Shown: positions 43,871 to 63,297, counted from the first letter of the stretch. The stretch is 64,000 nt of DNA from an uncultured Acidobacteriota bacterium (GCA_963733955.1 CAVTEW010000002.1:5863-69862), one strand, 5' to 3'. Notes: generated from the letters alone by a model not told the origin. Numbers and translations: made by a program.

Positions 43871-44863
43871 TTATGGCATCCTCCAGCTCTGCAGCACGCG
43901 CATGTAGTTGGCGCGCTCGAGCGCGGCGGGGTTGCCGCTCTTGACCATGCTCATGCTTCCCTGCATCTGGCGCAGCGACTCGTAGCCGTGCTCCTCCATC
44001 CACGCTTCCATCTCTTCGCGCACCGTGCGCAGGTGCTGGGGCCCGCGCTTCAAGAGGGCGCAGACCATCTGCACCGCGTGGGCGCCGGCCATGACCGCCT
44101 TGATCGCGTCGGTCGCGGTGTGGACGCCCCCGGTGACCGCGAGCGAGGCGTCGATGCGGCCGGAGAGGATGGCCAGCCAGCGCAGGCGCAGGAGCAGCTC
44201 GGCCGAAGTCGAGAAGCGCATGGTGGGCAGGACGTCCAGGGCCTCGACGTCGATGTCGGGCTGGTAGAAGCGGTTGAAGATCACCAGGCCGTCCGCGCCG
44301 GCCTCGTCCAGGCGCCGGGCGAAGTTGGCGAAGGAGGAGAAGAAGGGGGAGAGCTTGACCGCGACGGGAATCGAGACCGATCCCTTGACCGCCTCGACGG
44401 TTTCCAGGGTCCGCCGCTCCACGTCCTCGCCGGTCTCCAGGATGTCGGAGGCCAGGTAGTACACGTTCAACTCCAGCGCGTGAGCGCCGGCCTGTTCGAT
44501 CAGCCGCGCGTACTCGATCCAGGAATGGGGCGTCGTCCCGTTCAGCGACGCGATCACCGGCACGGCGACGGCGGCCCGGATGCGCTGGACCTGCTCGAGG
44601 TACTCGTCGGGACCGAGCGCGAAGAGGCCGGGCTCGGGCAAGTACGAGACGGCCTCGGCGTGCGACTCCGCGTTGGTCTCGAAGAGCAAGGCCTCGCGCT
44701 GCTCCACGAGGATCTGCTCCTCGAAGAGGGAGTGCATGACGATGGCCGCGGCCCCGGCGTCCTCCAGGCGGCGGACCATTCCCAGATCGTCGACCAGCGG
44801 CGAGGCCCCGGGCATGAAGGGGTGCGGCAGCTCGAGGCCGAGGTAGCTCGTGGTCAGGTCCAT
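43871..44863 (-). CDS. Dihydroorotate-dehydrogenase-like (class 1 DHOD/DHPD fold) flavoprotein
   Basis: MDLTTSYLGLELPHPFMPGASPL.., LNGTTP, LELNVY and VAVKLSP are TIM-barrel FMN motifs. Its start lies 4 nt after the PFOR stop. Confidence 0.8.
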   Translation of the reverse strand: MDLTTSYLGLELPHPFMPGASPLVDDLGMVRRLEDAGAAAIVMHSLFEEQILVEQREALLFETNAESHAEAVSYLPEPGLFALGPDEYLEQVQRIRAAVAVPVIASLNGTTPHSWIEYARLIEQAGAHALELNVYYLASDILETGEDVERRTLETVEAVKGSVSIPVAVKLSPFFSSFANFARRLDEAGADGLVIFNRFYQPDIDVEALDVLPTMRFSTSAELLLRLRWLAILSGRIDASLAVTGGVHTATDAIKAVMAGAHAVQMVCALLKRGPQHLRTVREEMEAWMEEHGYESLRQMQGSMSMVKSGNPAALERANYMRVLQSWRMP

Positions 44864-44867
44864 GGCG

Positions 44868-48467
<3,600 letters not shown>

Positions 48468-48595: not shown

Positions 48596-49396
48596 TCAGA
48601 CCGGCCCGGGATCGCCCAAGCGGCTCGAAGCCGCCGCGCGCCCGTCGAGACGGCCGAGAAGCCGCAGGAGGCCGTCGAGAATCGTCAACGGGTGGGGAGG
48701 GCAGCCCGGTATGGACAGATCGACAGGGATGTCCGCGGGGACGCCGTCGCGCGAGGACTGCGCCCCGGCGAACGGGCCGCCGGTCAAAGCGCACGCGCCC
48801 ACCGCGATCACGATCTTCGGCGCGGGAACCGCCGCGTAGGTCTCGCGCAGCGCGAGCTCCATGTTGGTGGTCACCGGGCCGGTCACGACGATCCCGTCGG
48901 CGTGCCGTGGAGAGGCCACGAACTGGATTCCAAAACGCCCGAGATCGAAGACCACGTTGCCCGTCGCGGTGAGCTCGGCTTCGCAGCCGCTGCAGCCGCC
49001 GGCGGAGACTTGACGCAACTTGAGCGAACGGCCGAAGAGCGCGCGCATGCCCCGGTCGAGCGCCGCCATCCGCGGCGCCTCGGCGCCCGAGACGATGAGG
49101 CCCGCTCGCGACCGCGCGGCCAGGCGATGGTCCTGCGTGTAGACGATTGCGCCCTCGGGGCACGACTCCTCGCAAATCGGGCAGAACAGGCATGCCCCCA
49201 GATCGACGCGCAAGGGCTCGGTCCCGATCGCCTGGGTCGGGCAAGCCTCGGCGCAGGCGCGGCACCCGTCCCGGCACTTGGAGGCGTCGACGATCGGGCG
49301 GCCTCGAAATCGCGACGGGAGCCGGACGCCCTCCGGAGGAAAGGCCATCGTCCGATGCCCCTGGCGCAGCCGGGCCCTCCACAGCTCGAAGATCAC
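48596..49396 (-). CDS. Ehr/Hyc-type small subunit: N-terminal 2x[4Fe-4S] ferredoxin (HycF-like) fused to a NuoB/HycG-like domain
   Basis: CRDGCRACAEACP and CLFCPICEESCP, then NuoB-like Cys (GGCSGCEAEL, VGACALTGGPF, IPGCPPHP). GTGA overlap with the large-subunit stop. Confidence 0.85.
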   Translation of the reverse strand: MIFELWRARLRQGHRTMAFPPEGVRLPSRFRGRPIVDASKCRDGCRACAEACPTQAIGTEPLRVDLGACLFCPICEESCPEGAIVYTQDHRLAARSRAGLIVSGAEAPRMAALDRGMRALFGRSLKLRQVSAGGCSGCEAELTATGNVVFDLGRFGIQFVASPRHADGIVVTGPVTTNMELALRETYAAVPAPKIVIAVGACALTGGPFAGAQSSRDGVPADIPVDLSIPGCPPHPLTILDGLLRLLGRLDGRAAASSRLGDPGPV

Positions 49397-50979
49397 AGAT
49401 CGTGTCCCGCGTAGGAGAGATTGAAGCTCTTGTTGCAGAGCGGAAAGTCGGAGATCTGGCCGCCCCGCAGGGCCATCGCCAGGCCGAACCAGTTGTGAAA
49501 GGACGGGTCGACGACTTGATAGCCCACGAGCCGTCCATCCGAGGATGTGGCGGCCACGTGCGCGATCTCGCCGCGCCAGCCCTCGACGATCGCGACGGCG
49601 AGACTGTCGGGGGAGAGACGGTCAACGGAGCGATCGGGCCCGACAGAGAGCGTTTCCGGCGGCAGCTCGTGGATCTGCTCTCGGAGGAAGGTCAGCGACC
49701 GCTGCGTCTCGAGCCAGCGGACGAGGGCACGCGCCATGACGTCTCCGGACTCGACGCGGGCGACCGGAATATGGGCGAACCGGTAGATGCCGAACGGGTG
49801 ATCGCGGCGCGCGTCCCGATCGCAGCCGCTGGCCCGCGAGACCGGACCGACCAGGCCGAGCGCTTGCGCGGTCTCCTGAGTGACGACGCCAGTGTGCTCG
49901 AAGCGCGAGCCGACCGACGGGGAGTCGAAGGTCGCCTGCGCCGTGTCCTTCAAATCCCTCTCGGCCGCGGCCAGACGGGGGAGAAAATCTCTTCGCTGCT
50001 CGGCAGACAGTCCGAACCGCACGCCTCCCGGCCTGAGGAGGCCTCTGCCGAAGCGGTTTCCGGAAAGGTCCAGAAGGAGGTTCAGGAACTCGCCCCGGAG
50101 GCGCCCGAACCAGGACGCGCCCGGCAGAAAGCCGATGTCGTTGCAGAGCGAACCCAGGTCTCCGGCGTGGTTGGAGAGGCGTTCGAGCTCCAGCGCGATC
50201 CCGCGCACGGCGTGGGCGTAGAGCGGTGGCTCGAGGCCGGCCAGCGATTCCACCGCCATGCAGTAGGCGAGGGCGTGGCCCACGGCGGTGTCTCCGGCGA
50301 TCGATTCCGCGACCGCCAGTCGCCGCGCGGGAGAAGATCGGAGAAGGAGCTCCTGCGCGCCGCGATGCTGGTAACCGAGCTGGATCTCGAGGTGGTGGAC
50401 GATCTCGCCCTGGCACTGAAACCGGAAGTGGCCGGGCTCGATGATGCCCGCGTGCACGGGCCCGACCGCGACCTCGTGGATCCCCGATCCTTCCACGCGA
50501 AAGAATGGATGGGGCTCGGCGCTCTTTGCGCCGTCGGTCCGGGTCTCAAGGTCCGCATGACGGCGCAAGGGCTTCAACCAGGGATGCCCGTCGGGGTGGA
50601 TCCCGTGATCCTCGGCGATCTCGCGCTCGAATGCCTGCGCCTGGGGGATCTCGGTCGAGAGGGCCGGATAGCTCCGGCTCTTGGGGACGGGCGTCTTCAG
50701 CAGGCCGAGGGTTCCTCGGGCGTCGTCCGCCAGCACCGCGAGGATTTCGTGCCTTTGCTCCGAATCTCGCTTCTCCGCCGGAAGGATGCACAGGGCAACG
50801 AGTCGACCACCCCGCGAGCAGATGTCGACGCAAGATCTCCGAAAGGAGCCAAGGGGAAACTCCGGAACGTCCACTCGCCGAATGGCCGAGCCGCTCCTGG
50901 TCCAGAGCGGCGAAACAATCGTGGGCGCCATCGCTCCCGGCGAGGCTCCTTTCTCGTTGGGCGTCTCTGCCACGGTCAT
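49393..50979 (-). CDS. NuoC+NuoD / HycE-like large subunit lacking NiFe-binding cysteines (Ehr-type)
   Basis: Clear homology (GPVHAGIIEPGHFRF, HLEIQLGYQHRG). AESIAGDTAVGHALAY replaces RxCGxCxxxH, and the C-terminus ISDFPLCNKSFNLSYAGHDL replaces DPCxxCxxR. SD GGGAGG and an ATGA overlap upstream. Confidence 0.85.
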   Translation of the reverse strand: MTVAETPNEKGASPGAMAPTIVSPLWTRSGSAIRRVDVPEFPLGSFRRSCVDICSRGGRLVALCILPAEKRDSEQRHEILAVLADDARGTLGLLKTPVPKSRSYPALSTEIPQAQAFEREIAEDHGIHPDGHPWLKPLRRHADLETRTDGAKSAEPHPFFRVEGSGIHEVAVGPVHAGIIEPGHFRFQCQGEIVHHLEIQLGYQHRGAQELLLRSSPARRLAVAESIAGDTAVGHALAYCMAVESLAGLEPPLYAHAVRGIALELERLSNHAGDLGSLCNDIGFLPGASWFGRLRGEFLNLLLDLSGNRFGRGLLRPGGVRFGLSAEQRRDFLPRLAAAERDLKDTAQATFDSPSVGSRFEHTGVVTQETAQALGLVGPVSRASGCDRDARRDHPFGIYRFAHIPVARVESGDVMARALVRWLETQRSLTFLREQIHELPPETLSVGPDRSVDRLSPDSLAVAIVEGWRGEIAHVAATSSDGRLVGYQVVDPSFHNWFGLAMALRGGQISDFPLCNKSFNLSYAGHDL

Positions 50980-52418
50980 CCTCCCAGCATGCCGGCGGCC
51001 CGGCGCAAGGCGTCCGCCAGGATTGGAGGAAGATAGATTCCCACCGCGAGCGCTCCGGCCGCGAGAGCGAGCGGCGGCAAGATCGAAAGCCGCGGCTCGC
51101 GAGACCGCGGCGCGCCTTCGTCGGGCGCTCCCTGGAGCATCGGGAGAAGAGTCCCGGCCATGCCCAGAAAGGCCACCGTCAAGAAAGCGACGAAGAGAAC
51201 GCCGATCCAGGCGTGGGGCCCTCTCAACGCCTCCTGAAAGATCAGGAACTCGCTCCAGAATGGTCCGAACGGCGGCAGGCCACCGATCGCGAGGAAGAGC
51301 GCCGCCATCAGGGCGCCGGTCGTTGGAATCCTTGCGAGCACTCCACGCGCCTCGCGAGCGGTCGTCGTCCGGAAGACTCGAAGGACGTTGCCCGCCAGGA
51401 GGAAGAGACCCGCCTTGCAAAGCGAGTGGTTCACCGAATGAAAGATCGCGCCGTACGCCGCGGTGCCCCCGAGCCCGACGCCGGCGGCCATGATTCCCAT
51501 GTTCTCGATGCTGGAATAGGCGAAGAGACGCTTGTAGTCGCTCTGGCCCACCAGGAAAGCGCACGCGACACCCATCGACACGAAGCCGAGGACAACGAGC
51601 AACGTTCGCGCGAACGCCGCGTCACCGGAAGCCAGGCAAACCTGGAAGAAACGCAGGATCGCCAGGAAGGCGCAGTTCAAGAGTGCTCCCGAGAGAAGCG
51701 CCGAGACGGGCGACGGAGCCTGACTGTGCGTGTCCGGGAGCCAGGTGTGGAGAGGCGCGAGGCCCATCTTGGTTCCGTATCCCACCAACGCGAGAATAAA
51801 GGCCGCCTTGAGCCATGGCCGCGCCATCCCGGGGGCTGCGGCTTCAAGCGTCCTGAGCATGAGACCGGCTTTCCCGCCGGAGACCGCCGACGCCGCGACC
51901 CCAAGGCAAAAAGTTCCGAGTAGCGCCAGGGCAATTCCCACCGAGCAGAGAAGCAGGTACTTCCAGGCCGCCTCGAGAGCTCCCCGCCGGCGATAGAAAT
52001 AGACGAGCGGCGCGCTGGCGAGCGTCGTTCCTTCGACGGCCGCCCACATCAGGGCAAGGTTCTGGGTGACCGACACCAGGCTCATGGCCGCCAGAAACGC
52101 AAGCAGGCAAGGCACGAATCGGTGCGGCGCCGCCTGCGTGTCGTGAGTGCCCTGAAGAATGTAGGGGACCGTGTAGACCGCGACGAGCAGGAAGAGAGCG
52201 CTGGTGATCGACAGGAAAATCAAGCCGATCACATCGAGCTGCAGGAGCGTTCCGAAGGTCTTCGACGGAGCGCCGGCCCAAAGAACCGCTGTCGCCGCGA
52301 AATGAAGCAGCGCTCCTCCCAGGAGGATGCCGAGGCCGACGCGAAGATCTTTGACCGCGAGCGCCAGGAGCCCCAGAGCGGCCGGCGCAAGAACGAGGAA
52401 AGCCAGGAGCCACGTCAT
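50976..52418 (-). CDS. Antiporter-like membrane subunit (NuoN/HyfF/MrpD family)
   Basis: GYGTKMGLAPLHTWLPDTHSQAPSPVSALLSG and LFAYSSIENMG are typical of proton-conducting subunits. Confidence 0.88.
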   Translation of the reverse strand: MTWLLAFLVLAPAALGLLALAVKDLRVGLGILLGGALLHFAATAVLWAGAPSKTFGTLLQLDVIGLIFLSITSALFLLVAVYTVPYILQGTHDTQAAPHRFVPCLLAFLAAMSLVSVTQNLALMWAAVEGTTLASAPLVYFYRRRGALEAAWKYLLLCSVGIALALLGTFCLGVAASAVSGGKAGLMLRTLEAAAPGMARPWLKAAFILALVGYGTKMGLAPLHTWLPDTHSQAPSPVSALLSGALLNCAFLAILRFFQVCLASGDAAFARTLLVVLGFVSMGVACAFLVGQSDYKRLFAYSSIENMGIMAAGVGLGGTAAYGAIFHSVNHSLCKAGLFLLAGNVLRVFRTTTAREARGVLARIPTTGALMAALFLAIGGLPPFGPFWSEFLIFQEALRGPHAWIGVLFVAFLTVAFLGMAGTLLPMLQGAPDEGAPRSREPRLSILPPLALAAGALAVGIYLPPILADALRRAAGMLGG

Positions 52419-52423
52419 CCCCG

Positions 52424-53077
52424 TCAGCCCCTGAGAGTCGAGAGCAGTTCGGTGTCGATATGCTCGAACTCGCGGCTGATGTGATTGATCGCGATCCCCA
52501 TCACGAAGACGCCCACGAGCAAGTCCAGAAGGATCCCCAGCTCGACCGCAAACGGGACCTGCTCGACCAGTGTCTGGCCGAATATGAAGATGCCGTTTTC
52601 CAGCATCAGGTAACCCACGACCTGAGTGACCGCCTTCCGACGGCTGACGAGGACCAGGAATCCCACGAGCACCGTCGCGAAGGCCATGGGAACGAGCAGG
52701 GGCGTCGGCGCAGGCCTGGGCAGAACGAGAACCGTGCCGAGCCAGAACGAGAACCCCACCAGCGCTGCCGCGATGAGGAGGGAGAAGTGCAGGCTGATGA
52801 AAGGCTCGGCCTCGCGGCGCACATTGGCCTCGCGAATCGCACGGGAAAGCAAGAGCGGAATGACGATGGCCTTGACGGCCAGCGCTCCCAGGCTCATCAA
52901 CGCGACGGGTACCAGATGCCGGTCGAGCGACGGGCCCCAGAGCGCGAGAGGCAAGAGCGAGAGCGCCACGCCCTGCAGCGCCGAGGCCCGCACACAGCTC
53001 GTCAGGCGGCTGGTGGCGACGATGGAGACGGAAAGCGTGGTCACGACCAGGAGCAGAAGATCCGCGTAACCGCTCAT
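52424..53077 (-). CDS. HyfE-like small membrane subunit
   Basis: 217-aa polytopic protein with GYLMLENGIFIFG, characteristic of HyfE/EhrC-type subunits. ATGA overlap with the upstream gene. Confidence 0.75.
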   Translation of the reverse strand: MSGYADLLLLVVTTLSVSIVATSRLTSCVRASALQGVALSLLPLALWGPSLDRHLVPVALMSLGALAVKAIVIPLLLSRAIREANVRREAEPFISLHFSLLIAAALVGFSFWLGTVLVLPRPAPTPLLVPMAFATVLVGFLVLVSRRKAVTQVVGYLMLENGIFIFGQTLVEQVPFAVELGILLDLLVGVFVMGIAINHISREFEHIDTELLSTLRG

Positions 53078-53997
53078 GGCGCGCCCCGGTAGAAGAGAGC
53101 GGCCAGGCCGATGGCGGCGAGCACGGCCGCCCCGACCAGGAACTGGGGCACTCGAGGAAGCCGCAGCCGAGCCACCACCGACTCGACCACGCCCACGAGC
53201 ACCGCCAGTGCGATCTCGCCGACGCAGAGCAAGGCGGCGCCCTGCCATCCGCCCCCAGCAGGGATCGGCAAGAGAATATGGGTGAGCAGCGCTCCGATCA
53301 CGAAGAGCTTGACGGCGCTGCCGTAAGACACGAACGCGAGATCCGGGCCCCCGTGATCGAGCACCATGACCTCGTGGACCATCGTCAGCTCGAGGTGGGT
53401 GTTGGGGTCGTCCACGGGGATGCGGGAATTTTCCGCAAGGAGGACGGCGAACAGCGAGAGCGCCGCGGCCAGATAGGTCGGATGCTCGAATCCCCATGTC
53501 GCCCACGGCAGCTGCCGGAACGCATCCCCGAAGGTCGCGCTCCGGGCGGGGACGCAGAGGATCGCGACCGAGAGAAAGAGAGCCGGCTCCGCCAGGGCCG
53601 CAAAAGCGGCTTCGCGACTGGCTCCCATTCCTTCGAAGCTCGAACCGGTGTCGAGGGCGGCGGCCATGGTGAAGAACCGACCGAGGCCGAGCAGATAGGC
53701 AAAGAGGACGACGTCTCCGGGAAAGCCGAGAGGCGAAGCGTTGGCCGCTAGAGGCAGCACGAGACCGGCGCACAGCACGGCGGCGAGTGAGACGATCGGT
53801 CCGGCACGAAAAATCCAGGTCGCGGTGCGGCTGTAGACGGCGCCTTTCCGAAGCAATTTCCAGAGATCGCGATAGGGCTGGAGAAGGGGCGGGCCAAGCC
53901 TTCCCGCGAACCAGGCCTTCGTCTTGTTGATCATGCCCGGGAGCAGCGGCGGCACGAGCAGAAGAAGTGCCAGGTGAATCCCGAGGTCCAACATCAT
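53074..53997 (-). CDS. NuoH/HycD-like membrane subunit
   Basis: INKTKAWFAGRLGPPLLQPYRDLWKLLRK.. and ENSRIPVDDPNTHLELTMVHE, typical of HycD/HyfC. Confidence 0.85.
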   Translation of the reverse strand: MMLDLGIHLALLLLVPPLLPGMINKTKAWFAGRLGPPLLQPYRDLWKLLRKGAVYSRTATWIFRAGPIVSLAAVLCAGLVLPLAANASPLGFPGDVVLFAYLLGLGRFFTMAAALDTGSSFEGMGASREAAFAALAEPALFLSVAILCVPARSATFGDAFRQLPWATWGFEHPTYLAAALSLFAVLLAENSRIPVDDPNTHLELTMVHEVMVLDHGGPDLAFVSYGSAVKLFVIGALLTHILLPIPAGGGWQGAALLCVGEIALAVLVGVVESVVARLRLPRVPQFLVGAAVLAAIGLAALFYRGAP

Positions 53998-53998
53998 G

Positions 53999-55987
53999 TC
54001 ACTGTCCCATTCCCGTGAGCTGCCAGACCAGGAGCGCGACGAGGGTCACCGCGATGTAGACGAGATAGAGCTGGAGGCGGCCCTGCTGGATCGCATGGAG
54101 CCGGGAAAGCGCCCGAACCACGCGCCGGACCGCGGGCAAGAGAATCCGCTCGCCGGCCATGTCGCCCAGGTGTTCTTCATAGTGGGCCGCGCCTGGAAAA
54201 TATCCATCGGGGCCCTGTTGGTCGACGCGCGTGGAAATCACCGGCGTGAACAGCGCGAGAATCGGCTGTGCGAAGGAGGCTGCAGTGTACTGCATTCGAG
54301 AGGTTCCCGCCGCGTAGCCGCAGCCCCAGGTCGCCCCCCGCGACACCGAACGGCCGCGAAGGAGGGCCAGGCGGACCAGTCCGAGCAGCAGAACGAGAAC
54401 GAGGAGCACGACGCTCACTCGCGTGATTGCGGAAAGCGCTGCGGCGTTGGGAAACGCGTCCGCCTTCTTTCCGAGAAACGCAGCCGTCGGCGCCACGACC
54501 CGCATCGCTCCCGCCGGCCAGAGTCCAATCGCGAAGCACAGGAGCGCCCCCAAAAGCATCGGCGCTCGCATCAGGGGCCCGGCTTCGTGGGCCTTCGAAG
54601 CGGCCTCCGTGCGGGGCTGACCCAGGAAAACGACGCCGAACGCCTTCACGAAGCACGTCGCGGCCAACCCCCCGACGAGCGCCAGCGCCGGAACCACGGC
54701 GAGCGCCCAAACAGCCCATGTGGTTGGGAAGAAGGCGCCGCCCCGGAACGCGCCGATGTAGATCAGCCACTCACTGACGAAGCCATTGAGAGGCGGCAGA
54801 CCGCAGATGGCGACGGAACCGACGAGAAACGTCGCGGCTGTCGTTGGCATGCGGCGGGAGAGGCCTCCGAGTTTGTCGATGTCCCGCGTACCGGTGCCGT
54901 GAGCGACGCTGCCGGCTCCCTGAAAAAGAAGACCCTTGAAGAGCCCGTGATTGAGAACATGGAGCAGAGCTCCCGCGAAGCCCAGGAAGGCGACGGAAGG
55001 GTTTCCCTGGCTCTGCCCCAGAAGACCAAGGCCAATTCCCAGCGCAATGATTCCGATGTTCTCGACGCTGTGGTAGGCCAGGAGACGCTTGAGGTCGTGC
55101 TGAGCCAGGGCATGGAGCACGCCGGCCACCCCGGAAACGGCTCCGATGGCGATCAGGAGAGCGCCCCACCACACCGGCGGCGGCCCGAGGAACGAAAGAA
55201 TTCGGAGCAGCCCGTAGATCCCCATCTTGATCATCACGCCCGACATCACGGCGGAGACGTGACTCGGCGCGGCCGGGTGCGCGTCGGGGAGCCAGATGTG
55301 CATCGGCCAGAAGCCGGCCTTGGTCCCGAAACCGACGACGGCGAGCAGGAACGCAACACCCGCGAGCGCCGGAGTCGTGGCGCCGGCCGCCGCCAGAGCG
55401 TCGAAATCGTAGGTGCCCGACTCCTTGCCCAGAACGGCGATCAGGACGAACAGGAAGACGACGCCGAGCTGGGAGGCGATCAGGTACGTCATCCCGGCCC
55501 GGCGAACCTCCTCGCGCTCGCTCTCGAAAGTCACAAGGAAGAACGAAGCCAGCGTCATGATCTCCCAGGCCAGGAGAAAGAGAATGCCGTCCCGAGCGAT
55601 CGCCACCACGGCCATGGCGGCGACGAGCAGGTTGAAGAAGAAAACGGCCGGCGCCAGGCGCCGCTTCCCGAGGTCGGCACGCAGGTATCCTCCCCCGTAA
55701 ATCGCCGAGAGGCCCGACACCAGGAAGACGCAGACCAGGAAGAACGAGGAGAGCGGGTCGAGCGCGACGTGGAGCTCTCCCACCGGCAGCGGCCAGGCCG
55801 CGCGCAGCCCGCTCCGCGAGCCTGAGATCAGCGCGGAAAAGGCCGCCGAAAGACCCGTGGCGCAAGCGAGCCCGGCTCCGACCGTGCCGATCCACAGCGC
55901 GGCTCGGTTGGAACGGCCCGACAGGGCCGCGGCGAGGGCGCTGGCGCACAGGAGAGCGATCGAAAGCAGGACGATCTCGAGCTGCAC
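53999..55987 (-). CDS. NuoL/HycC/HyfB-like antiporter-type membrane subunit
   Basis: GFGTKAGFWPMHIWLPDAHPAAPSHVSAVMSGVMIKMG and LLAYHSVENIG. GTG 55987 is chosen as the start because the longer ORF overlaps the upstream regulator. Confidence 0.85.
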   Translation of the reverse strand: MQLEIVLLSIALLCASALAAALSGRSNRAALWIGTVGAGLACATGLSAAFSALISGSRSGLRAAWPLPVGELHVALDPLSSFFLVCVFLVSGLSAIYGGGYLRADLGKRRLAPAVFFFNLLVAAMAVVAIARDGILFLLAWEIMTLASFFLVTFESEREEVRRAGMTYLIASQLGVVFLFVLIAVLGKESGTYDFDALAAAGATTPALAGVAFLLAVVGFGTKAGFWPMHIWLPDAHPAAPSHVSAVMSGVMIKMGIYGLLRILSFLGPPPVWWGALLIAIGAVSGVAGVLHALAQHDLKRLLAYHSVENIGIIALGIGLGLLGQSQGNPSVAFLGFAGALLHVLNHGLFKGLLFQGAGSVAHGTGTRDIDKLGGLSRRMPTTAATFLVGSVAICGLPPLNGFVSEWLIYIGAFRGGAFFPTTWAVWALAVVPALALVGGLAATCFVKAFGVVFLGQPRTEAASKAHEAGPLMRAPMLLGALLCFAIGLWPAGAMRVVAPTAAFLGKKADAFPNAAALSAITRVSVVLLVLVLLLGLVRLALLRGRSVSRGATWGCGYAAGTSRMQYTAASFAQPILALFTPVISTRVDQQGPDGYFPGAAHYEEHLGDMAGERILLPAVRRVVRALSRLHAIQQGRLQLYLVYIAVTLVALLVWQLTGMGQ

Positions 55988-55992
55988 CGGAC

Positions 55993-56685
55993 TTACTCGG
56001 AGCGCGCCGCGGCGGCGCGGGCCTCTTCTTCGATGGCGCGGAGACGGTCCAGGATCTCTTCCCGCGGCGCGGTTCTCTCCAGGAGGCTCTGGAGCGCGTC
56101 GTCGTGCAAGGCGAAGGCGAGGCGGGCGAACATCTGGAGGTGGACCCGCACCGACGGCGACAGCAGCACGAACAGGACGCGCACGGGCCGGCCGTCCAGG
56201 GCATGAAAATCGATCGGCCGGCGGAGGAAACAAACCAGGACCACAGGCTCATCGGTGTGAACCACGACGGGATCGCGCGGGTGCGGAATCGCGATGCCGT
56301 TGCCGATGCCGGTCGACGCGAGCGCCTCCCGCGCGGCCAGGAGCTGGTGGAGGAGCTGCCGGTCGACGCGCGGCGGGATCCCCGGCAACCGGGAAACCGC
56401 CTGCAGAACGTCCTCGCGCCGCTCGCCCGGGATGTCGTAGAAGATGCCGCCCCGGCCGATCGCCGCGGAAAGGCTCGAGACCTCTTCGGACGCGCCGTTG
56501 CCGGCGAGCAGCTCGGGCGAGACCCGATGCTCGTGCAGCGCGGCCCACTCCTGCAGCTCGACGCGGTGGAACATGTACTGGTCATGAATCCGGTGAGCCG
56601 GCAGGGAGCCGCTGCGGATCCAGCGGTAGATGGTCTGCTCCGAAACGTTGAGCAGGCGAGCGACGTCTCGAACTCTCAGTTCCAT
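55993..56685 (-). CDS. HTH (excisionase/MerR-like) + PTS EIIA(Ntr/Fru)-type domain regulator
   Basis: MELRVRDVARLLNVSEQTIYRWIRSGSLPAHRI, and an EIIA-2 core with the TGIGNGIAIPH histidine loop. Confidence 0.8.
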   Translation of the reverse strand: MELRVRDVARLLNVSEQTIYRWIRSGSLPAHRIHDQYMFHRVELQEWAALHEHRVSPELLAGNGASEEVSSLSAAIGRGGIFYDIPGERREDVLQAVSRLPGIPPRVDRQLLHQLLAAREALASTGIGNGIAIPHPRDPVVVHTDEPVVLVCFLRRPIDFHALDGRPVRVLFVLLSPSVRVHLQMFARLAFALHDDALQSLLERTAPREEILDRLRAIEEEARAAAARSE

Positions 56686-56734
56686 CGGCGCAAGCTCCTC
56701 GCGAGTCTCGAAAGTGGGACGGCCATGACCCTGG

Positions 56735-57475
56735 CTAGCGCTTGGCCGGCTTGGTCCCGGCGGCTGTCCGGGGCCCATCGTCCAAGGCGACCTTGCGCTC
56801 CGTCGCGGCAACGGCCCGAAAGATCGACTGGGCGTCGGACGCGTCGAGGACGGCCCGGACGGCCTCCGCGCGCGCGAACATGTGCGCGAGCTTGTTGAGC
56901 CACGGAAGGTAGAGCTCCTCGAACTTGAGGCCGAGCGCGAAGAAGAGATGGGTCGGCCCGCCGTCCAGAGCGTCGAAGTCCACTCCCGGCCGCGAGCGGC
57001 CGAGGAGCATGAACGGACGGGAGACCTGCTCGGGATTTCGGCGCAGGGTGTGGAGAAAGGCGACGCCGTTGCCCATGGCGCTGGGCATCACATTCTCGCG
57101 CTCGATCAACGCCCCGACGAACCAGGTCTTGTCCCGCACGAGGCCTAATCGGGCGGCCAGACCCGCGAGCTCCTCGATGACCGTGTTCTTCGTCGCGGCT
57201 TCCAGATCGGGCACGATGTGGTCCGGCTGAAAGCAGGTGGCCAGCGCGAGCATGCGCCGTGGGGAGCCTTCCAGGCGCGGCGCGTCCACGTACCGCGGCA
57301 TCACGCCGAGCATCTGGTCGTCGAGCCACGTGTCGATCATGGCCTTCCGAAAGCGCCACTGGTTCCCCACCTTGACTCCGGGGAGGGCGCCGTCCGAGAC
57401 GAGCTTGGCCACGGTCCGGTCGTTCACGCTCAGGTACTCCGCCAGCTGCTTGATCGTCATCAAACGATCTTCCAT
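56735..57475 (-). CDS. HTH (excisionase/MerR-like) + PTS EIIA-type domain regulator (paralogue)
   Basis: LMTIKQLAEYLSVNDRTVAKLVSDGALPGVKVGNQWRF, and EIIA-like SAMGNGVAFLH. SD GGAGAA lies 9 nt before the ATG. Confidence 0.8.
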   Translation of the reverse strand: MEDRLMTIKQLAEYLSVNDRTVAKLVSDGALPGVKVGNQWRFRKAMIDTWLDDQMLGVMPRYVDAPRLEGSPRRMLALATCFQPDHIVPDLEAATKNTVIEELAGLAARLGLVRDKTWFVGALIERENVMPSAMGNGVAFLHTLRRNPEQVSRPFMLLGRSRPGVDFDALDGGPTHLFFALGLKFEELYLPWLNKLAHMFARAEAVRAVLDASDAQSIFRAVAATERKVALDDGPRTAAGTKPAKR

Positions 57476-57627: not shown

Positions 57628-58740
57628 CTAGGACTGGAGAATCATTCTTGCGTCACGAGCGACGGCGAGCTCCTCGCGCGTCCGGATGACCAGAATCCTC
57701 GCGCGGGCGGATGGCGCGGCCACGTCGGCGTCGGGGACGCACGCGGCGTTGGCGGCGGAGTCCAGGGACGCGCCCAGGAACCCGAGGGTCTCGCAGACCG
57801 CTTCGCGCAGCGAGGCGGAATGCTCGCCGACTCCGGCCGTGAAAACGAGTGCGTCGAGTCCGCCCAGGCCGGCCGCGAGCGCGCCGATCGCGCTCCGCAC
57901 GCGGTCGGCGTAGATCGCCAGGGCCAGCCGGGCCCGTTCATGACCTCCGGCGGCCGCCTTCTCGACGTCCCGATAATCCCAAGAGAGTCCCGAAACGCCC
58001 AGGAGCCCCGACCGGTGGTTGAGCAGGTCGTCCAGCGTCTCCGGGGAGAGCCCGCGCCGGCGCGCGGCCCACAGCAGAATTCCCGGATCGAGCGATCCCG
58101 ACCGCCGCCCCATCATCAGGCCCTCCATGGGCGTGAAGCCCATCGTGGTCGCGACGGGAGATCCGTCCAGGACGGCCGCCGCCGAGCAGCCGTTGCCGAG
58201 GTGGCAGACCACCAGGCGCCGGGGCCGCGCCGGCAGGATCTGCGCGGCGCGCCCGGCGCAATAGGAGTGGCTCAACCCGTGGAAGCCGAACCGGCGGATT
58301 CCCCAGTCGGCCGTCCATTCCCAGGGCACCGGGTAGACGCGCGCGCGGGCGGGAAGGGCGGCGAAGAAGGCGGTGTCGAAGGCGGCGAACTGCGGAATTT
58401 CCGGCAGCGCCTCCCCGACCGCCTCGATGACCGCCAGCGCCGGCGGATTGTGGAGCGGGGCGAGCTCGGAAAGGGCCCGGAGGGACGCCAGGACGGTTTC
58501 GCCGATCCGCACGGTCTGCCCGAACGCGTCCCCCCCATGGACGACGCGGTGGCCGACGGCACGGATCGAGTTTGACCCGGCTGCTGGAGCGACGGAGCGG
58601 AGAACCCGCTGCGCCGCCGCCCGGTGGCCGTCCGGCTCGGGAGACACGTCTTCGGCGCCCGAAGAGATCTCGTCGCGCGCCTCGTCGTCGAAGAGGGCGT
58701 GCTTCAGCGTGCTCGAGCCGGCGTTGAAGACGAGGATCAT
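57628..58740 (-). CDS. ackA: Acetate kinase
   Basis: MILVFNAGSSTLKHALF, HRVVHGG, GFHGLSH and FTAGVGEHS. Confidence 0.92.
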   Translation of the reverse strand: MILVFNAGSSTLKHALFDDEARDEISSGAEDVSPEPDGHRAAAQRVLRSVAPAAGSNSIRAVGHRVVHGGDAFGQTVRIGETVLASLRALSELAPLHNPPALAVIEAVGEALPEIPQFAAFDTAFFAALPARARVYPVPWEWTADWGIRRFGFHGLSHSYCAGRAAQILPARPRRLVVCHLGNGCSAAAVLDGSPVATTMGFTPMEGLMMGRRSGSLDPGILLWAARRRGLSPETLDDLLNHRSGLLGVSGLSWDYRDVEKAAAGGHERARLALAIYADRVRSAIGALAAGLGGLDALVFTAGVGEHSASLREAVCETLGFLGASLDSAANAACVPDADVAAPSARARILVIRTREELAVARDARMILQS

Positions 58741-58745
58741 GGCGG

Positions 58746-58808
58746 GGCGTGAGGCGTGAGGCGGGAGGCGTGAGGCGTGTGGCGAGAGGCGTGAGGCGTG
58801 AGGCGGAA
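58746..58808. repeat. Nine tandem heptamers GGCGTGA (variants GGCGGGA, GGCGTGT, GGCGAGA, GGCGGAA) abutting the ackA start codon
   Basis: Read directly from the sequence. On the coding (minus) strand they read TCACGCC x9 and end 5 nt before the ackA ATG. Confidence 0.8.
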
Positions 58809-58840
58809 CGCCAAAGGTTTCATGGACCGGGTCTCGGCTT

Positions 58841-58868
58841 CGCCTAACGCCTAACGCCTAACGCCTTA
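58841..58868. repeat. Four tandem heptamers CGCCTAA x3 + CGCCTTA (the last contains the xfp stop codon)
   Basis: Read directly from the sequence. They are the near reverse complement of the GGCGTGA array 33 nt away. Confidence 0.8.
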
Positions 58869-61274
58869 CGACTTGGAGGTCCCAGTCGGCCACTTCCAGT
58901 TTGCGACTTCCGGCGGGTCGACGCCGTGGTCGGAGACGTAGGGCCGATGCCTGCGCACCTTCTCTTCGTACGCGCGGACGATCTCCTCGGCCCGCGCCGC
59001 CGAGGACGGCGTCCGCGCGGCGATCTTCTCGGCCGCCTGGATCACGATGTGGTAGCGGCTGGTGCGGTTGCGCACGTGCATGTCGAACGGAGTGGTGGTC
59101 GAACCCTCCTCCCGGTAGCCGTTGACGTCGAATCGCTCGTTGCCGGGCCGCTCCCAGCACAGCTGCTTGATGGCGGCGGTGTAGCCGTGGAAGTTGAAGA
59201 CGACCGGAACGGCGAGGGGGAAGAGGCGCTGAAAGCGGTCTTCGGTCAGACCGTGCGCGTATTTCTGGGGAATGCCGAGCGCCACCAGGTCCGTGACGTT
59301 GACGACGCGCACGCGCCAGTCCGGCGCCTCCGAGCGCAGGAGGGAAGCGGCGGCAAGGACCTCGATGGTCATGTTGTCCCCGCAGGCGGCCAGGACGACC
59401 TGGGGATCCTCCCCGCCGTTGGTGGAGGCCCAGCGCCAGATCGACGCTCCCAGCCGGCAATGCTCGACGGCCTCCGGGAGCGAGAGCCACTGGGCCATGG
59501 GCTGCTTGCCCGCGATGACGAGGTTGATGTAGTTGACGGACCGGAGACAGTGGTCGATCGTGGAGAGGAGGCTGTTGGCGTCGGGGGGCAGGTAGATCCG
59601 ATAGGTGTGCCCCTTCTTGGTCAGGAGATTGTTGATGAAGCCCGGCCCCTGGTGGGAAAACCCGTTGTGGTCCTGCCTCCAGGCCTCCGACGTCAGCAGA
59701 TAGTTGAGCGACGAGACCGGCTTCCTCCAGGACACCTCGCCGGAAGCCTTCAGGAACTTGGCGTACTGATTCATCATCCCGTCGATGATCGGGATGAACG
59801 CCTCGTAGCACGGAAAGAGCCCGTGCCGCCCGGTCAGCAGATACCCCTCGAGCCAACCCTGGCAGAGATGCTCGGAGAGGACCTCGAGCACCCGGCCGTC
59901 CCGCGCGGTCTTCTCCGTCCCCTCGGGCAGCGGCCAGTCGTACTGCCGCCGCGTCACGTCGAGGAGGCCGCCCAAGCGGTTGGACTCGAGCTCGTCGGGG
60001 CAGACGATCCGGAAGTTGCGGGCGCGCTCGTTGTCCGTCAGGACGTCGGAGAGGTAGCCGGTCAGGGCCTGCATGTGGCTCACCACAGTGCCGCCCCGCG
60101 CGCCCGGATCGACGGCGACGGCGTGCTTGGCCAGGGGCGGAAGCTCCAGGGCCACGCGGCGGTCCCCGCCGAACGTCGCGGGGTTCATGGCGATGCGCTG
60201 CGCGCGGGGCGGGCACAGCTCGAGCAGATCGGGCGACGGATGGCCGTCCCCGTCGAAGAGCTCCTCGGGCCGATAGGATCGGAGCCAGCGCTCCAGGATG
60301 GCCAGGTGCTCCGGATTCGTCTTGGGATCCTTGACCGGGACCTGGTGCGCCCGGAAGCTCCCTTCGATCCGCTCGCCGTCGATCTCGCGCGGGGCGCCCA
60401 TGCCCTTGGGCGTTTCCAGGATCAGGAGCGGCCAGCGCGGCCGGGGGTCGGGGGCGCCGGCGCGCGCCCGCCGCTGGATCTCCAGGATCTGCGCGTGCGC
60501 CCAGGACAGCGCCTGGTCGAGATCCGCGTCGAGCCGGTCGAGCTGCGAGACGAAACGGACCGCGTAGCCGTGGCCGGTGTACAGCGCCTCGAGCTCCTCG
60601 CGGCTCATCGACGCGGAGATCGTGGGGTTGGAGATCTTGAAGCCGTTCAAGTGCAGGATGGGCAGGACCGCTCCGTCCGCGGCGGGGTTGACGAACTTGA
60701 TGCCGGTCCACGCCCCCGCGGTGGGGGCCGTCTCGGCTTCTCCGTCGCCCACGATGCAGACCACCAGCAGCTCGGGGTTGTCCAGGGCCGCGCCGAACGA
60801 GGTCGACAGCGCGTAACCCAGCTCGCCCCCCTCGTGGATGACGCCGGGCAGCGCCGGGGAGAGGTGGCTGGGAAAGCCGTAGGGCCAGGAGAAACGGGTC
60901 ATGAGGCGCTCGAGTCCGGCCGCGTCGCGGGTGATATCCGGGTAGAACTCGGTCATCGTGCCCTCGATCCACATGTTGGCCATGTTCGCGGCGGCCCCGT
61001 GGCCCGGCCCGGTGACCAGCATCACCGACGCGCCGGTTCGGAGGATCAATCGGTTCAGGTGGGCGTAGACGAGGTTGATGCCGGGCGCCGTGCCCCAGTG
61101 CCCCAGGAGGCGATCCTTGATGTGCGCGGCCTCGAGCGGGCGCGCGAGCAGCGGATTGGACTTGAGATAGATCTGTCCCGCCGCGATGTAGTCGACGGCG
61201 CGGCGATAGCGGGCCAGGCTGGAATCGGGGCCCGGTCGCTCGGACGACGCGGGGCGTTGGAGAGCGGTGGCCAT
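58866..61274 (-). CDS. xfp: Xylulose-5-P/fructose-6-P phosphoketolase
   Basis: 802 aa. YRRAVDYIAAGQIYLKSNPL, GHWGTAPG, EGGELGY and the GDGEAETAPTA TPP motif. Confidence 0.95.
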   Translation of the reverse strand: MATALQRPASSERPGPDSSLARYRRAVDYIAAGQIYLKSNPLLARPLEAAHIKDRLLGHWGTAPGINLVYAHLNRLILRTGASVMLVTGPGHGAAANMANMWIEGTMTEFYPDITRDAAGLERLMTRFSWPYGFPSHLSPALPGVIHEGGELGYALSTSFGAALDNPELLVVCIVGDGEAETAPTAGAWTGIKFVNPAADGAVLPILHLNGFKISNPTISASMSREELEALYTGHGYAVRFVSQLDRLDADLDQALSWAHAQILEIQRRARAGAPDPRPRWPLLILETPKGMGAPREIDGERIEGSFRAHQVPVKDPKTNPEHLAILERWLRSYRPEELFDGDGHPSPDLLELCPPRAQRIAMNPATFGGDRRVALELPPLAKHAVAVDPGARGGTVVSHMQALTGYLSDVLTDNERARNFRIVCPDELESNRLGGLLDVTRRQYDWPLPEGTEKTARDGRVLEVLSEHLCQGWLEGYLLTGRHGLFPCYEAFIPIIDGMMNQYAKFLKASGEVSWRKPVSSLNYLLTSEAWRQDHNGFSHQGPGFINNLLTKKGHTYRIYLPPDANSLLSTIDHCLRSVNYINLVIAGKQPMAQWLSLPEAVEHCRLGASIWRWASTNGGEDPQVVLAACGDNMTIEVLAAASLLRSEAPDWRVRVVNVTDLVALGIPQKYAHGLTEDRFQRLFPLAVPVVFNFHGYTAAIKQLCWERPGNERFDVNGYREEGSTTTPFDMHVRNRTSRYHIVIQAAEKIAARTPSSAARAEEIVRAYEEKVRRHRPYVSDHGVDPPEVANWKWPTGTSKS

Positions 61275-61910: not shown

Positions 61911-61975
61911 GGATCTGTTAATTCTGCAGGCAGGCAAAGGGGCGCCGGCACGCGGGCCGGCTTCAAGGAGTTCCC

Positions 61976-62431
61976 ATGAAGATTCTCGTAGCCACAGACG
62001 GATCCAGAGGCAGCACGGCGGCCCTGAGCTTCGCTGCGAAACTCGCCGGCGGCGAGGGCGCGGAGCTGATCGTGCTGACCGTCGATCCGAGCAACGGGTC
62101 GCGGCCCGGACTCCGCGAGGTCGGCAAGGACGGTCCCGCGGCGGCCGTGCGGCCGGAAGCGCGCAAGACCCTGGACGCGGCGGCGCGCGAGATCAAGCGT
62201 CACCACGCCAAGGCCCAGTTTCAGACGATCTCGGCGAGGCGGCAGGACGAGATTCCCGACGTGATCTCCCGGGAAGCCGATCGGATCAAGGCCGATCTCG
62301 TGATCGTCGGAAGCGAAGGCCGGGACACCCTGAACGAATGGGTCGTCGGCGGCGTCGCCCTGCGCCTGATCTACGTGGCGCGCCGGCCGGTCACGGTCGT
62401 GCGTCCGCCCCGGCGCCGGCAGGCGAGCTAG
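61976..62431 (+). CDS. Universal stress protein
   Basis: MKILVATDGSRGS..DLVIVGSEGRDTLNEWVVGGVALRLIYVARRPVTVV. SD AAGGAG. Confidence 0.88.
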   Translation: MKILVATDGSRGSTAALSFAAKLAGGEGAELIVLTVDPSNGSRPGLREVGKDGPAAAVRPEARKTLDAAAREIKRHHAKAQFQTISARRQDEIPDVISREADRIKADLVIVGSEGRDTLNEWVVGGVALRLIYVARRPVTVVRPPRRRQAS

Positions 62432-62461
62432 ATTGATCCGGGCCGAAGCCTAGATGTCAGG

Positions 62462-63136: not shown

Positions 63137-63276
63137 GCGGGACTCGGGATCGACGGAAGACTGAGGACTTCATCGGGCCGCGCCCGAATCTGTCTTTCCC
63201 CGAATCTCCGCCTGCAGGGCCACACGGAACTCATTCATCGCGAGCCCTTTAGCCTGGTGAAAACGCCTCATCGGCC

Positions 63277-63292
63277 TGATGTGGATTCATCA
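63277..63292. promoter_or_regulatory. Palindromic box TGATGTGGATTCATCA
   Basis: Exact core. First of two boxes upstream of the second PAS-LuxR gene. Confidence 0.55.
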
Positions 63293-63297
63293 GGAAT

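Follow-up and report, generated by a model that had tools for sequence, protein, structure and literature searches.

A predicted hydrogenase-4-like membrane complex of the Ehr/Hyq class with a rebuilt, cysteine-free NiFe pocket in an uncultured Acidobacteriota bacterium

What might a membrane complex do when it has the build of an energy-conserving hydrogenase and is predicted to be unable to bind a NiFe center? The question is raised by a locus in a 64,000-nucleotide stretch of DNA (the window) from an uncultured Acidobacteriota bacterium (GCA_963733955.1, CAVTEW010000002.1:5863–69862). Six translationally coupled genes, all with intact ORFs, occupy positions 48,596–55,987 of the minus strand, on which all window features given below lie. 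In gene order, they encode L, an antiporter-type subunit resembling HyfB/NuoL/HycC (53,999–55,987; 662 aa, GTG start); H, a HycD/NuoH-like subunit (53,074–53,997; 307 aa); E, a HyfE-like subunit whose C-terminal half is NuoK-like (52,424–53,077; 217 aa); N, an antiporter-type subunit resembling HyfF/NuoN (50,976–52,418; 480 aa); D, a NuoC+NuoD/HycE-like large subunit without NiFe ligands (49,393–50,979; 528 aa); and B, a small subunit in which a NuoI/HycF-like 2x[4Fe-4S] domain is fused to a NuoB/HycG/MbhJ-like domain (48,596–49,396; 266 aa, GTG start). The gene set and order put forward in the preliminary description agree with these coordinates and with the Pfam and NCBIfam families, and its account of the junctions also holds: 4-nt overlaps at H/E, N/D (ATGA) and D/B (GTGA), and gaps of 1 nt at L/H and 5 nt at E/N.

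The family matches place the membrane arm close to hydrogenase-4. L matches NCBIfam hydrogenase-4 subunit B (637 bits), N matches hydrogenase-4 subunit F (340 bits, 3e-101), and E matches hydrogenase-4 membrane subunit HyfE (81 bits, 1.3e-22), with a weak Pfam Oxidored_q2 match over residues 131–216. H is recognized as Pfam NADHdh (2e-33), while D carries Complex1_30kDa and Complex1_49kDa, and B a Fer4 dicluster and Oxidored_q6 (Pfam/NCBIfam). The window thus shares subunit types HyfB, C, E, F, G, H and I with E. coli Hyf, although its HyfH-like and HyfI-like proteins are fused. Compared with E. coli Hyf and Hyc, it lacks the NiFe ligands, HyfA, HyfD, formate dehydrogenase, hyp genes and the protease. 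In line with the earlier statement that hyp, endopeptidase and formate dehydrogenase genes are absent, a Pfam search of ORFs with coding-like GC3 in the 64-kb window, very short ORFs excepted, found none of these and no other hydrogenase. Nor do the six genes complete a complex I core set with NuoA, J, K, M and NuoEFG, and the window has no NuoEFG input module.

The loss of the metal ligands is seen in D. When D is aligned to its best sequence match, E. coli HycE (7z0s_E; phmmer, E = 3e-43), the L1 motif RxCGxCxxxH is absent, HycE RVCGICGFAH pairing with SIAGDTAVGH (residues 226–235), and the C-terminal DPCYS... of HycE pairs with NLSYA. Extending that alignment by position sets DPCYSCTDR opposite NLSYAGHDL (520–528), so that the L2 motif DPCxxCxx(H/R) is absent as well. 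The four ligand positions are occupied by A228, T231, S522 and G525, which bears out the earlier claim that all four cysteines are missing. The former L1 region now reads AESIAGDTAVGH (residues 224–235; 50,275–50,310; aligned to HycE RVCGICGFAH and Nqo4 RMDYLHSFAH). The former L2 region reads DFPLCNKSFNLSYAGHDL (residues 511–528; 49,396–49,449), and the C-terminus of D coincides with the end of mature HycE. The overall fold is apparently kept, as the AlphaFold model of D (pLDDT 80.6, pTM 0.85) has HycE 7z0s_E as its best Foldseek match (TM 0.82).

Could this simply be the non-functional remnant of a decayed hydrogenase-4 operon? All catalytic cysteines are lost, as such a remnant would have it, and all four are missing from every one of 81 close homologues. 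The residues that replace them, however, are themselves invariant across phyla. For instance, E225, G229 and D230 are found in 81/81 sequences, T231 in 74/81 and H235 in 80/81; the two L1 ligand positions hold A/S and T/S, and those of L2 hold S522 and G525 in all 81 sequences. Similar constraint is seen in the hydrogenase-type beta1-beta2 loop GPVHAGIIEPGHFRF (50,419–50,463), where E181 (80/81) and H184 (81/81) are kept. Altogether, 136 of the 528 positions of D are at least 95% conserved across the 81 sequences, those of the former NiFe motifs included. The former pocket is therefore rebuilt and nearly invariant rather than decayed, a point that goes beyond the preliminary description. Decay is also at odds with the six intact, translationally coupled ORFs, with a family numbering in the thousands (868 clusters at 50% identity among matches at E<1e-30), and with the detection of Ehr subunits in Geobacter proteomes (PMC7894505). 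A decayed remnant is hardly credible, and conservation effectively rules it out. Instead, strong conservation across phyla of the pocket, the H loop described below, the Fe-S ligands and, in L and N, the charged residues argues for a functional complex.

The complex is not alone. [quoted passage not shown] 2013, cited in PMC8691401, PMC7894505, PMC6728331). The Ehr assignment made earlier stands, since the locus corresponds to the published definition in its set of genes, in having none of the four NiFe ligands and in having no maturation genes within the window. The domain and family hits, the ligand alignments to HycE, MbhL and Nqo4, the HycE fold match and hallmark motifs shared with Rhizobium HyqG and HyqC further support the window complex as a member of this widespread, previously described Ehr/Hyq class. 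The family was detected in at least 526 stretches of GTDB species-representative genomes; 80 loci were retained, which come from several phyla and have the gene order of the window in common.

Two described systems bear comparison. The Ehr locus of Geobacter sulfurreducens (GSU0739–0745) resembles that of the window by its published description, with a large subunit devoid of NiFe CxxC motifs; its NuoL-like EhrA-1, HyfE-like EhrC, EhrL and EhrS fit the window set (PMC8691401), and some window-related loci have two NuoL-like genes, as in EhrA-1 and EhrA-2 of Geobacter. The second is the Hyq “endo-hydrogenase” of Azorhizobium caulinodans and of Rhizobium johnstonii 3841 (plasmid pRL11), whose genes follow the same order (regulator, then B, C, E, F, G, I). 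HyqG of Azorhizobium is a large subunit without the cysteines (PMC2650096, PMC3357923), as is that of R. johnstonii, which carries xSGDS and DFPLCNKSFNxSYxGHDL motifs. Aligned to the window, R. johnstonii HyqG, HyqC and HyqI show xGD[ST], DFPLCNKSF..SYxGHDL and THLELTMVHE in common. Nevertheless, large-subunit identity is only ~35%, Rhizobium Hyq falls in another clade of an unbootstrapped NJ tree, HyqI (177 aa) lacks the 2x[4Fe-4S] domain of B, and HyqR is a 98-aa HTH protein without EIIA, whereas the window regulator has one. In addition, hyq is under NifA/sigma-54 control, and no sigma-54 site was found at the window locus. With its fused ferredoxin-like domain and HTH+EIIA regulator, the window complex thus appears to be a sub-type apart from rhizobial Hyq.

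Hyq also bears on whether such complexes turn over hydrogen. The preliminary description held that no activity had been established for the class. This is so inasmuch as there is no cell-free H2 assay, but it overlooks in vivo phenotypes: deletion of hyqRBCEFGI in Azorhizobium alters H2 uptake and evolution, with H2 release raised ~10-fold in diazotrophic cultures and microaerobic H2 evolution lowered (PMC3357923, PMC2650096). It is conceivable, then, that the window encodes a non-canonical hydrogenase in which H+ and H2 are interconverted with ferredoxin electrons at the Cys-free pocket or by the proximal cluster itself. The Hyq hallmark motifs are present in the window, the hydrogenase-type Glu181/His184 relay and CxxC proximal cluster are kept, and true four-Cys enzymes nest within the family (PMC3569383); six such representatives (~38% identity), which share a DFPL[IV]NKSF motif, fall in the Hyq-type clade of the unbootstrapped NJ tree. 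Even so, this is quite improbable. The cysteines that hold Ni-Fe(CN)2CO are missing throughout the 81 homologues, the window has no hyp or protease genes, and, for want of maturation genes, a homologue in Mycobacterium tuberculosis is not regarded as a hydrogenase (PMC6728331). Furthermore, the evidence from Hyq is in vivo only (PMC3357923), and might in our reading reflect altered electron flux to nitrogenase.

Where, then, would electrons enter? The preliminary description had assigned to B four proximal-cluster cysteines plus two extra [4Fe-4S] motifs, and all are found. C135, C138, C202 and C232, in GGCSGCE, GAC and GCPP, align with the proximal-cluster ligands of MbhJ (the best match, 5e-29) and HycG (close behind, 1e-28), and upstream lie Cx3Cx2Cx3CP and Cx2Cx2Cx3CP ferredoxin motifs (49,127–49,297), both of which occur in 64 of 77 B homologues. 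Fusion of this 8-Cys ferredoxin-like domain to a 4-Cys NuoB-like domain argues for ferredoxin as the input, as does the lack of NuoEFG or formate dehydrogenase both in the window and among the conserved neighbors of 80 loci. A pyruvate:ferredoxin oxidoreductase (PFOR) gene (44,868–48,467; TIGR02176, 1787 bits) points the same way, since it follows 128 nt further downstream in the same orientation, with no terminator-like site in the gap. None of 80 related loci has an adjacent PFOR, however; the gene is context specific to this window and outside the conserved module, which counts against that reading.

At the other end, the membrane subunits look equipped to pump ions. L has HycC (7z0s_C, E = 5e-78) as its best match and MbhH (E = 3e-65) as a further homologue, and retains the TM5 Glu (WEIM), TM7 Lys (GTKAG), the Lys of MIKMG and LFKGL, and the TM12 Glu (VSEW). 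N likewise keeps the TM5 Glu (VEGT), TM7 Lys (GTKMG), LCKAG Lys and TM12 Glu (WSEF). The presence of these canonical residues favors ion pumping, and membrane Glu residues are conserved in E as well (LENG and AVELG). H is closest to HycD (7z0s_D, E = 3e-27), followed by MbhM (E = 1e-21), while any complex I NuoH scores only 1.7e-5. Its TM5-6 loop NSRIPVDDPNTHLELTMVHEVMVLDHGGPDL (53,338–53,430) stands in place of the canonical PFDLxEAExEL...EYSG of HycD and MbhM. The loop is near-invariant in 66 homologues and also found in Variovorax and in Rhizobium HyqC (PVDNPATHLELTMVHEAMVL), and is a family-specific, histidine-rich variant of the HycD-like loop, a second addition to what had been described.

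The reading that we favor, tentatively and at somewhat less than an even chance, is a ferredoxin-oxidizing H+/Na+ pump with menaquinone as putative acceptor, working under energy or oxygen limitation. Reduced ferredoxin, which in this genome the adjacent PFOR could provide, would dock on the 2x[4Fe-4S] domain of B. Electrons would then pass through the proximal [4Fe-4S] cluster to an acceptor at the D/B/H interface, other than H+ at a NiFe site, with protons delivered by the retained Glu181/His184 relay, and the redox reaction would power H+ or Na+ translocation via H, E, N and L. Menaquinone, bound in a mode unlike that of complex I, is the favored acceptor and would make the complex a ferredoxin:quinone ion pump. 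A quinone is suggested by the named hosts, which belong overwhelmingly to respiratory lineages (Anaeromyxobacter, Acidobacteriota, Planctomycetota, Verrucomicrobiota, rhizobia, Cupriavidus, Rhodococcus), and by the two antiporter-like modules, which imply a sizeable drop in free energy. The plausible functional analogue would be complex I and the ferredoxin-dependent NDH-1/Fpo-type enzymes, with their homologous NuoB, C, D, H, I, K and L/N modules.

The likeness to complex I has its limits. The quinone head-group ligands of T. thermophilus Nqo4 are gone in D (Tyr87 aligns with G229 and His38 with I180, in the beta1-beta2 loop), and B has a hydrogenase-type CxxC (GCSGCE) opposite the GLACCAVE type of complex I, the tandem Cys-Cys of cluster N2 being absent. 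Separate NuoA and NuoJ genes are also missing, and H, D and B resemble complex I less than they do Hyc and Mbh. Ligands, cluster and similarities alike leave a complex I-type quinone site unsupported. Further points against a quinone come from Ehr relatives, of other clades, in Riflemargulisbacteria, for which no pathway of quinone synthesis was detected (PMC6349859), as well as in CPR bacteria (PMC7304191), and Azorhizobium Hyq genetics point to H2 rather than ferredoxin:quinone chemistry (PMC3357923).

The quinone-site objections apply equally to a pump run in reverse, in which the membrane potential would push (mena)quinol electrons uphill to ferredoxin. Complex I-type machines are reversible, as is the adjacent PFOR, and the pump residues of L and N are intact. 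The hyq operon, moreover, is controlled by NifA, and good diazotrophic growth depends on it (PMC2650096). If true, this mode would supply a low-potential reductant, e.g., for pyruvate synthesis by PFOR or for rhizobial nitrogenase. It is nonetheless unlikely, as the phosphoketolase, acetate kinase and stress/hibernation neighbors suggest a catabolic, energy-limited state in which ferredoxin is made, not used.

Other acceptors dispense with quinones altogether. Distinctly unlikely is a new catalytic center in the strictly conserved Cys-free pocket, which would turn over H2 independently of NiFe, the claim made on genetic grounds for Hyq, or reduce a substrate directly at the proximal [4Fe-4S] cluster, with no quinone site. 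Such a center would comprise E225, G229, D230, T231 and H235 together with S522, Y523, G525 and D527; it would be fed by the Glu181/His184 proton relay and face the CxxC-type proximal cluster and the His-rich HycD loop.

The ferredoxin-fed, ion-translocating MBH (6CFW) and MBS/Mbx (6U8Y) of Pyrococcus furiosus suggest another option. The window shares the MbhJ-type CxxC cluster with MBH, and MBS shows that a NiFe-free member can reduce a different substrate, although both are far larger Mrp-type assemblies of 13–14 subunits, against six in the window. By analogy, a soluble acceptor (sulfane sulfur, polysulfide or a disulfide) might be reduced at or near the proximal cluster. MBS homologues are detectable (MbsL 6e-21, MbsM 3e-9, MbsJ 2e-17), and two cysteines of the D tail, C515 and C524, are conserved in most family members. 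Position 524 is Ala in the window and in 30 of 81 homologues (Cys in 49), however, MBS similarity is far below that to Hyc and Mbh (for D, 6e-21 against 3e-43 with HycE), and no sulfur-metabolism genes are linked to the locus. This too is improbable.

A last alternative does away with net redox catalysis, making the complex an Mrp-like cation/proton antiporter whose Fe-S arm senses or gates by ferredoxin redox state. L and N show strong homology to Mrp antiporters, the ligand alignments reveal no recognizable acceptor site, and no conserved redox partner accompanies the module. Nevertheless, the near-invariant pocket, proton relay and H loop are what would be expected of a catalytic and coupling site, and we know of no precedent in the superfamily for such a gate, which makes it very improbable.

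Returning to the ferredoxin-oxidizing pump, its expression would probably be set by HTH+EIIA regulation that responds to PTS/energy status, within a hypoxia- or starvation-type gene island. Two regulators precede the operon. REG1 (55,993–56,685) joins an excisionase/MerR-type HTH_17 domain (3e-15) to PTS_EIIA_2 (4e-21; both Pfam), retains the GIAIPH His motif and stops 5 nt ahead of the L start; in 48 of 61 related loci L is immediately preceded by a homologue of REG1, the sole conserved neighbor found across them. REG2 (56,735–57,475), with a sigma-70-like site upstream (57,558–57,529), is an HTH_17+EIIA-2 paralogue, and REG2-like second copies are present in some related loci.

A comparable setting is offered by the “hyc” locus of M. 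tuberculosis (Rv0081–Rv0087), which we take to be hypoxia/dormancy-regulated and presumably to differ from the window in its gene order (NuoB-like gene first) and ArsR-type regulator. It is described as an Ehr homologue without hydrogenase function, its genes being regulated by Rv0081, a transcriptional hub (PMC6728331). Around the window locus, phosphoketolase, acetate kinase and PFOR genes occur. Like the M. tuberculosis locus by its description, it also lies in a stress-type setting, among genes for universal stress and CBS proteins, a hibernation factor, pfkB and P-type ATPases.

The Ehr operon consists of six genes on the minus strand, each with matches in Pfam and NCBIfam. Gene L (53999-55987) matches hydrogenase-4 subunit B, H (53074-53997) the NuoH/HycD family, E (52424-53077) HyfE, and N (50976-52418) hydrogenase-4 subunit F. 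The large subunit, D (49393-50979), matches NuoC plus NuoD/49-kDa, and the small subunit, B (48596-49396), carries a 4Fe-4S dicluster domain followed by NuoB/20-kDa. These matches and the gene coordinates agree with the gene set and subunit types of the preliminary description, and the coordinates also reproduce the 4-nt ATGA/GTGA overlaps (H/E, N/D and D/B) and the gaps of 1 nt (L/H) and 5 nt (E/N) reported there. With ~70% G+C in the window, raw ORF lists contain many spurious frames, and the true reading frames were chosen by GC3. Very long antisense ORFs occur at 44850-48455 (+) and elsewhere, such as one of 1201 aa opposite the pyruvate:ferredoxin oxidoreductase (PFOR) gene; these were rejected as genes, being artefacts of the 70% G+C. 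With gene boundaries corrected, GC3 is 0.78-0.87 in the Ehr genes versus 0.87-0.96 in their neighbours, and overall G+C is ~0.66 versus 0.70 in the flanks. The shift is modest, and is compatible with, but not decisive for, acquisition as a cassette.

Among solved structures, D is closest to E. coli HycE (7z0s_E, E=3e-43), with MbhL (4e-38), Nqo4 (3e-26) and MbsL (6e-21) next in order. SIAGDTAVGH of D aligns opposite RVCGICGFAH of HycE, and the C-terminal NLSYAGHDL opposite DPCYSCTDR, where the printed alignment spans DPCYS/NLSYA and the rest is matched by position. D thus has none of the four NiFe cysteines, as had been claimed from the sequence. In the same alignment, Gly229 and Ile180 stand opposite Tyr87 and His38 of Nqo4, and thus the complex-I quinone ligands are missing as well. 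The beta1-beta2 loop, GPVHAGIIEPGHFRF, retains the Glu/His pair typical of group 4 hydrogenases (SDEPGHFRL in HycE). An AlphaFold monomer of D (pLDDT 80.6, pTM 0.85) has HycE as its top structural match (TM 0.82) and E. coli NuoCD as its second. Confidence drops in two segments, the beta1-beta2 loop and the C-terminal tail, so that the monomer model cannot tell the shape of the pocket; these are the segments that would form it in the assembled complex.

Relatives are widespread. At least 526 stretches encoding them were found in a scan of GTDB species-representative genomes, and the best 80 of these loci were used for neighbourhood comparison. They belong to Thermoanaerobaculia/Acidobacteriota (identity up to 75%), Planctomycetota, Verrucomicrobiota, Eisenbacteria, Omnitrophota and Myxococcota, the last with cultured Anaeromyxobacter among them, and to further groups. 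The large subunits of Anaeromyxobacter terrae and PSR-1, cultured carriers from the window's clade, are 55-58% identical. In an alignment of 81 large subunits, little or no variation is seen at the residues now standing in for the NiFe site (E225, G229, D230, T/S231 and H235) or in the tail DFPLCNKSFNLSY[C/A]GHDL, and 136 of 528 positions in D are at least 95% conserved. Subunit H carries a family-specific loop, PVDDPNTHLELTMVHEVMVLDHGG, in place of the PFDLxEAExEL...EYSG of Hyc, Mbh and complex I, and this loop is almost invariant among homologues. Conservation of the D residues and of the H loop led us to reject a decayed pseudogene. In some genomes the Ehr genes adjoin a second Ehr-like set, or L is preceded by an additional NuoL-like gene: a Variovorax plasmid (L082; 2908-10192 and 13604-17431) and the related loci L068 (12340-17174), L008 (13367-15562), L028, L035, L040, L073 and L077. 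The extra NuoL-like gene recalls EhrA-1/EhrA-2 of Geobacter.

Subunit B contains the four proximal-cluster cysteines, in the hydrogenase-type CxxC arrangement rather than the CC pair of NuoB, and, N-terminal to them, two ferredoxin-type motifs; the cysteines and extra [4Fe-4S] motifs originally described are thus all present. Both antiporter-like subunits, L and N, retain the canonical membrane Glu and Lys residues. The sequence data establish the subunit make-up, the lost ligands, the conserved positions, and Fe-S and pump residues that remain intact; the Ehr complex of the window is not a decayed enzyme. In the working model, ferredoxin would feed the fused 2x[4Fe-4S] domain, electrons would pass through the proximal cluster to an acceptor at the D/B/H interface, and the chemistry at the acceptor would be coupled to ion translocation. 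The same machine might alternatively operate in reverse, or the pump modules might serve as a redox-gated antiporter. The weak point of the model is the acceptor. Menaquinone would suit both the respiratory lifestyle of the hosts and the presence of two pump modules, yet no diagnostic feature of a complex-I quinone site is present, and all three interface subunits are hydrogenase-like. An MBS-like reduction of a soluble acceptor is a further alternative.

A few relatives do have the metal ligands. An exhaustive profile-free search returned 868 clusters (50% identity) at E<1e-30, and complete RxCGxC ... CYSCxDR motifs occur in 6 of the best 150 (representatives P0208, P0227, P0231, P0236, P0260 and P0268), which share DFPL[IV]NKSF and the loop sequence. 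In a rough neighbour-joining tree, these four-Cys proteins form one group within the clade that holds rhizobial HyqG, and D of the window falls in a second, wholly Cys-less clade. Because the tree is midpoint-rooted and without bootstrap, these placements are only indicative. The nesting of the four-Cys enzymes may reflect repeated loss of the metal site, or else a very recent divergence. Four-Cys relatives near a Cys-less family agree with the reported closeness of Ehr to group 4f (PMC10284858) and with the EhrL of Desulfotomaculum ruminis, which retains four Cys (PMC3569383).

The gene set and the ligand losses support the reading of this operon as a member of the Ehr class. The name derives from GSU0739-0745 of Geobacter sulfurreducens, which include NuoL-like EhrA, HyfE-like EhrC, EhrL and EhrS (PMC8691401, PMC7894505). 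The class has repeatedly been described as of "function unknown" (PMC4378227, PMC6349859, PMC7304191, PMC10284858, PMC6728331). The earlier statement that no activity is established for it holds for a biochemically established reaction; it does not extend to in vivo phenotypes, since deletion of hyqRBCEFGI in Azorhizobium caulinodans altered both H2 uptake and evolution (PMC2650096, PMC3357923). Azorhizobium HyqG is likewise without both CxxC motifs, and the Hyq authors note that no cell-free assay exists and call a NiFe site "uncertain, if not unlikely" (PMC2650096, PMC3357923). NiFe-independent H2 chemistry, as claimed for Hyq, is an alternative for the window complex. Gene order in Azorhizobium is identical to that of the window, and the orthologous operon on plasmid pRL11 of Rhizobium johnstonii shares the window's hallmark motifs in HyqG and HyqC. 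In contrast, R. johnstonii HyqI (177 aa) has no ferredoxin domain, and HyqR there is an HTH protein of only 98 aa, whereas the window regulators combine HTH_17 with EIIA. The Variovorax plasmid has a fused small subunit, as in the window. The window complex thus belongs to a ferredoxin-domain-fused sub-type within an already described class.

Upstream of L lie two tandem paralogues (55993-57475, minus strand), REG1 and REG2, each with an excisionase/MerR-type HTH_17 and a PTS EIIA-2 (PtsN/FruA-like) domain; REG1 retains the GIAIPH histidine. The order regulator-L-H-E-N-D-B is kept in the 80 related loci, and an HTH_17 + PTS-EIIA-2 homologue lies directly upstream in 48 of the 61 with enough upstream sequence (median gap 33 nt). 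The regulator gene spans several phyla and is divergent in a few loci, and some Verrucomicrobiota loci have an additional EIIA-only protein. No mention of this link was found in the Ehr/Hyq literature cited here. A NifA/sigma-54 promoter, as in hyq, was rejected: TGGCAC-N5-TTGC was matched no more often than expected by chance, with no match upstream of the operon. Scans for promoters and terminators yielded little else; the exceptions were a single sigma-70-like site upstream of REG2 and, in the 128-nt gap between the operon and PFOR, the absence of a terminator-like site.

Downstream of the operon, the region 43871-48467 (-) encodes PFOR (1199 aa) and, after 4 nt, a "dihydroorotate dehydrogenase-like protein" (NF005741, 439 bits, above cutoff), a tight pairing that suggests a functional couple. 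Phosphoketolase (XFP) and acetate kinase genes (57628-61274, minus strand) lie immediately upstream of the regulators; with PFOR they would place an acetyl-phosphate/acetate ATP-yielding route beside the complex. In tblastn searches of the 80 related loci, PFOR was adjacent in none, so it was rejected as a conserved partner and its link is window-specific; phosphoketolase, acetate kinase and the dihydroorotate dehydrogenase-like protein were not adjacent either. Two all-against-all clusterings of flanking ORFs from related loci yielded no conserved neighbour besides the regulator. A formate dehydrogenase-Ehr partnership (PMC6349859) was rejected, as neither formate dehydrogenase nor NuoE/F occurs in the window and no such neighbour is conserved. 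As initially noted, the 64-kb window holds no hyp gene, protease or formate dehydrogenase, nor any other hydrogenase.

Few members of the complex I/group 4 hydrogenase superfamily without a biochemically established reaction are as widespread as the Ehr/Hyq complexes, whose hosts include soil and sediment Acidobacteriota, Myxococcota, Planctomycetota, Verrucomicrobiota, Nitrospira, rhizobia and M. tuberculosis. Knowledge of the acceptor would close a gap in models of how such hosts sustain a membrane potential and discard low-potential electrons under shortage of oxygen or energy, and would also be relevant to the replacement of H2 chemistry by quinone chemistry as complex I evolved. The interest of this locus lies not in novelty of kind but in the function of the class and in testable handles: a built-in ferredoxin-type input domain, a conserved PTS-EIIA-type regulator, PFOR as a direct neighbour making reduced ferredoxin, and cultured Anaeromyxobacter in the same clade.

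Beyond the operon, the window resembles a starvation/hypoxia island. Stress- and dormancy-type genes (7100-15901, 28854-29666, 33213-34710, 38285-39955 and 61922-63998) encode six CBS-pair proteins, three universal stress proteins (one tandem), an HPF/YfiA-like hibernation factor, a pfkB kinase, a P-type cation ATPase and two PAS-LuxR regulators. A similar list of gene families makes up the mycobacterial DosR regulon, to which an Ehr-like locus, Rv0081-87, likewise belongs. Flanked by CBS-domain genes, 10417-13284 (-) encodes a 955-aa fusion of a Pat-like GNAT acetyltransferase to an ADP-forming acyl-CoA synthetase (CoA-binding, Succ_CoA_lig and ATP-grasp_5 domains). At 18728-22151 (+), a KaiC-like double-domain ATPase precedes a hybrid histidine kinase with a receiver domain, the two overlapping in the stop-to-stop frame. 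Finally, 30487-33212 (+) encodes an archease and RtcB RNA ligase pair, in which the archease ORF (414 aa stop-to-stop, Archease domain 277-414) has a long N-terminal extension.
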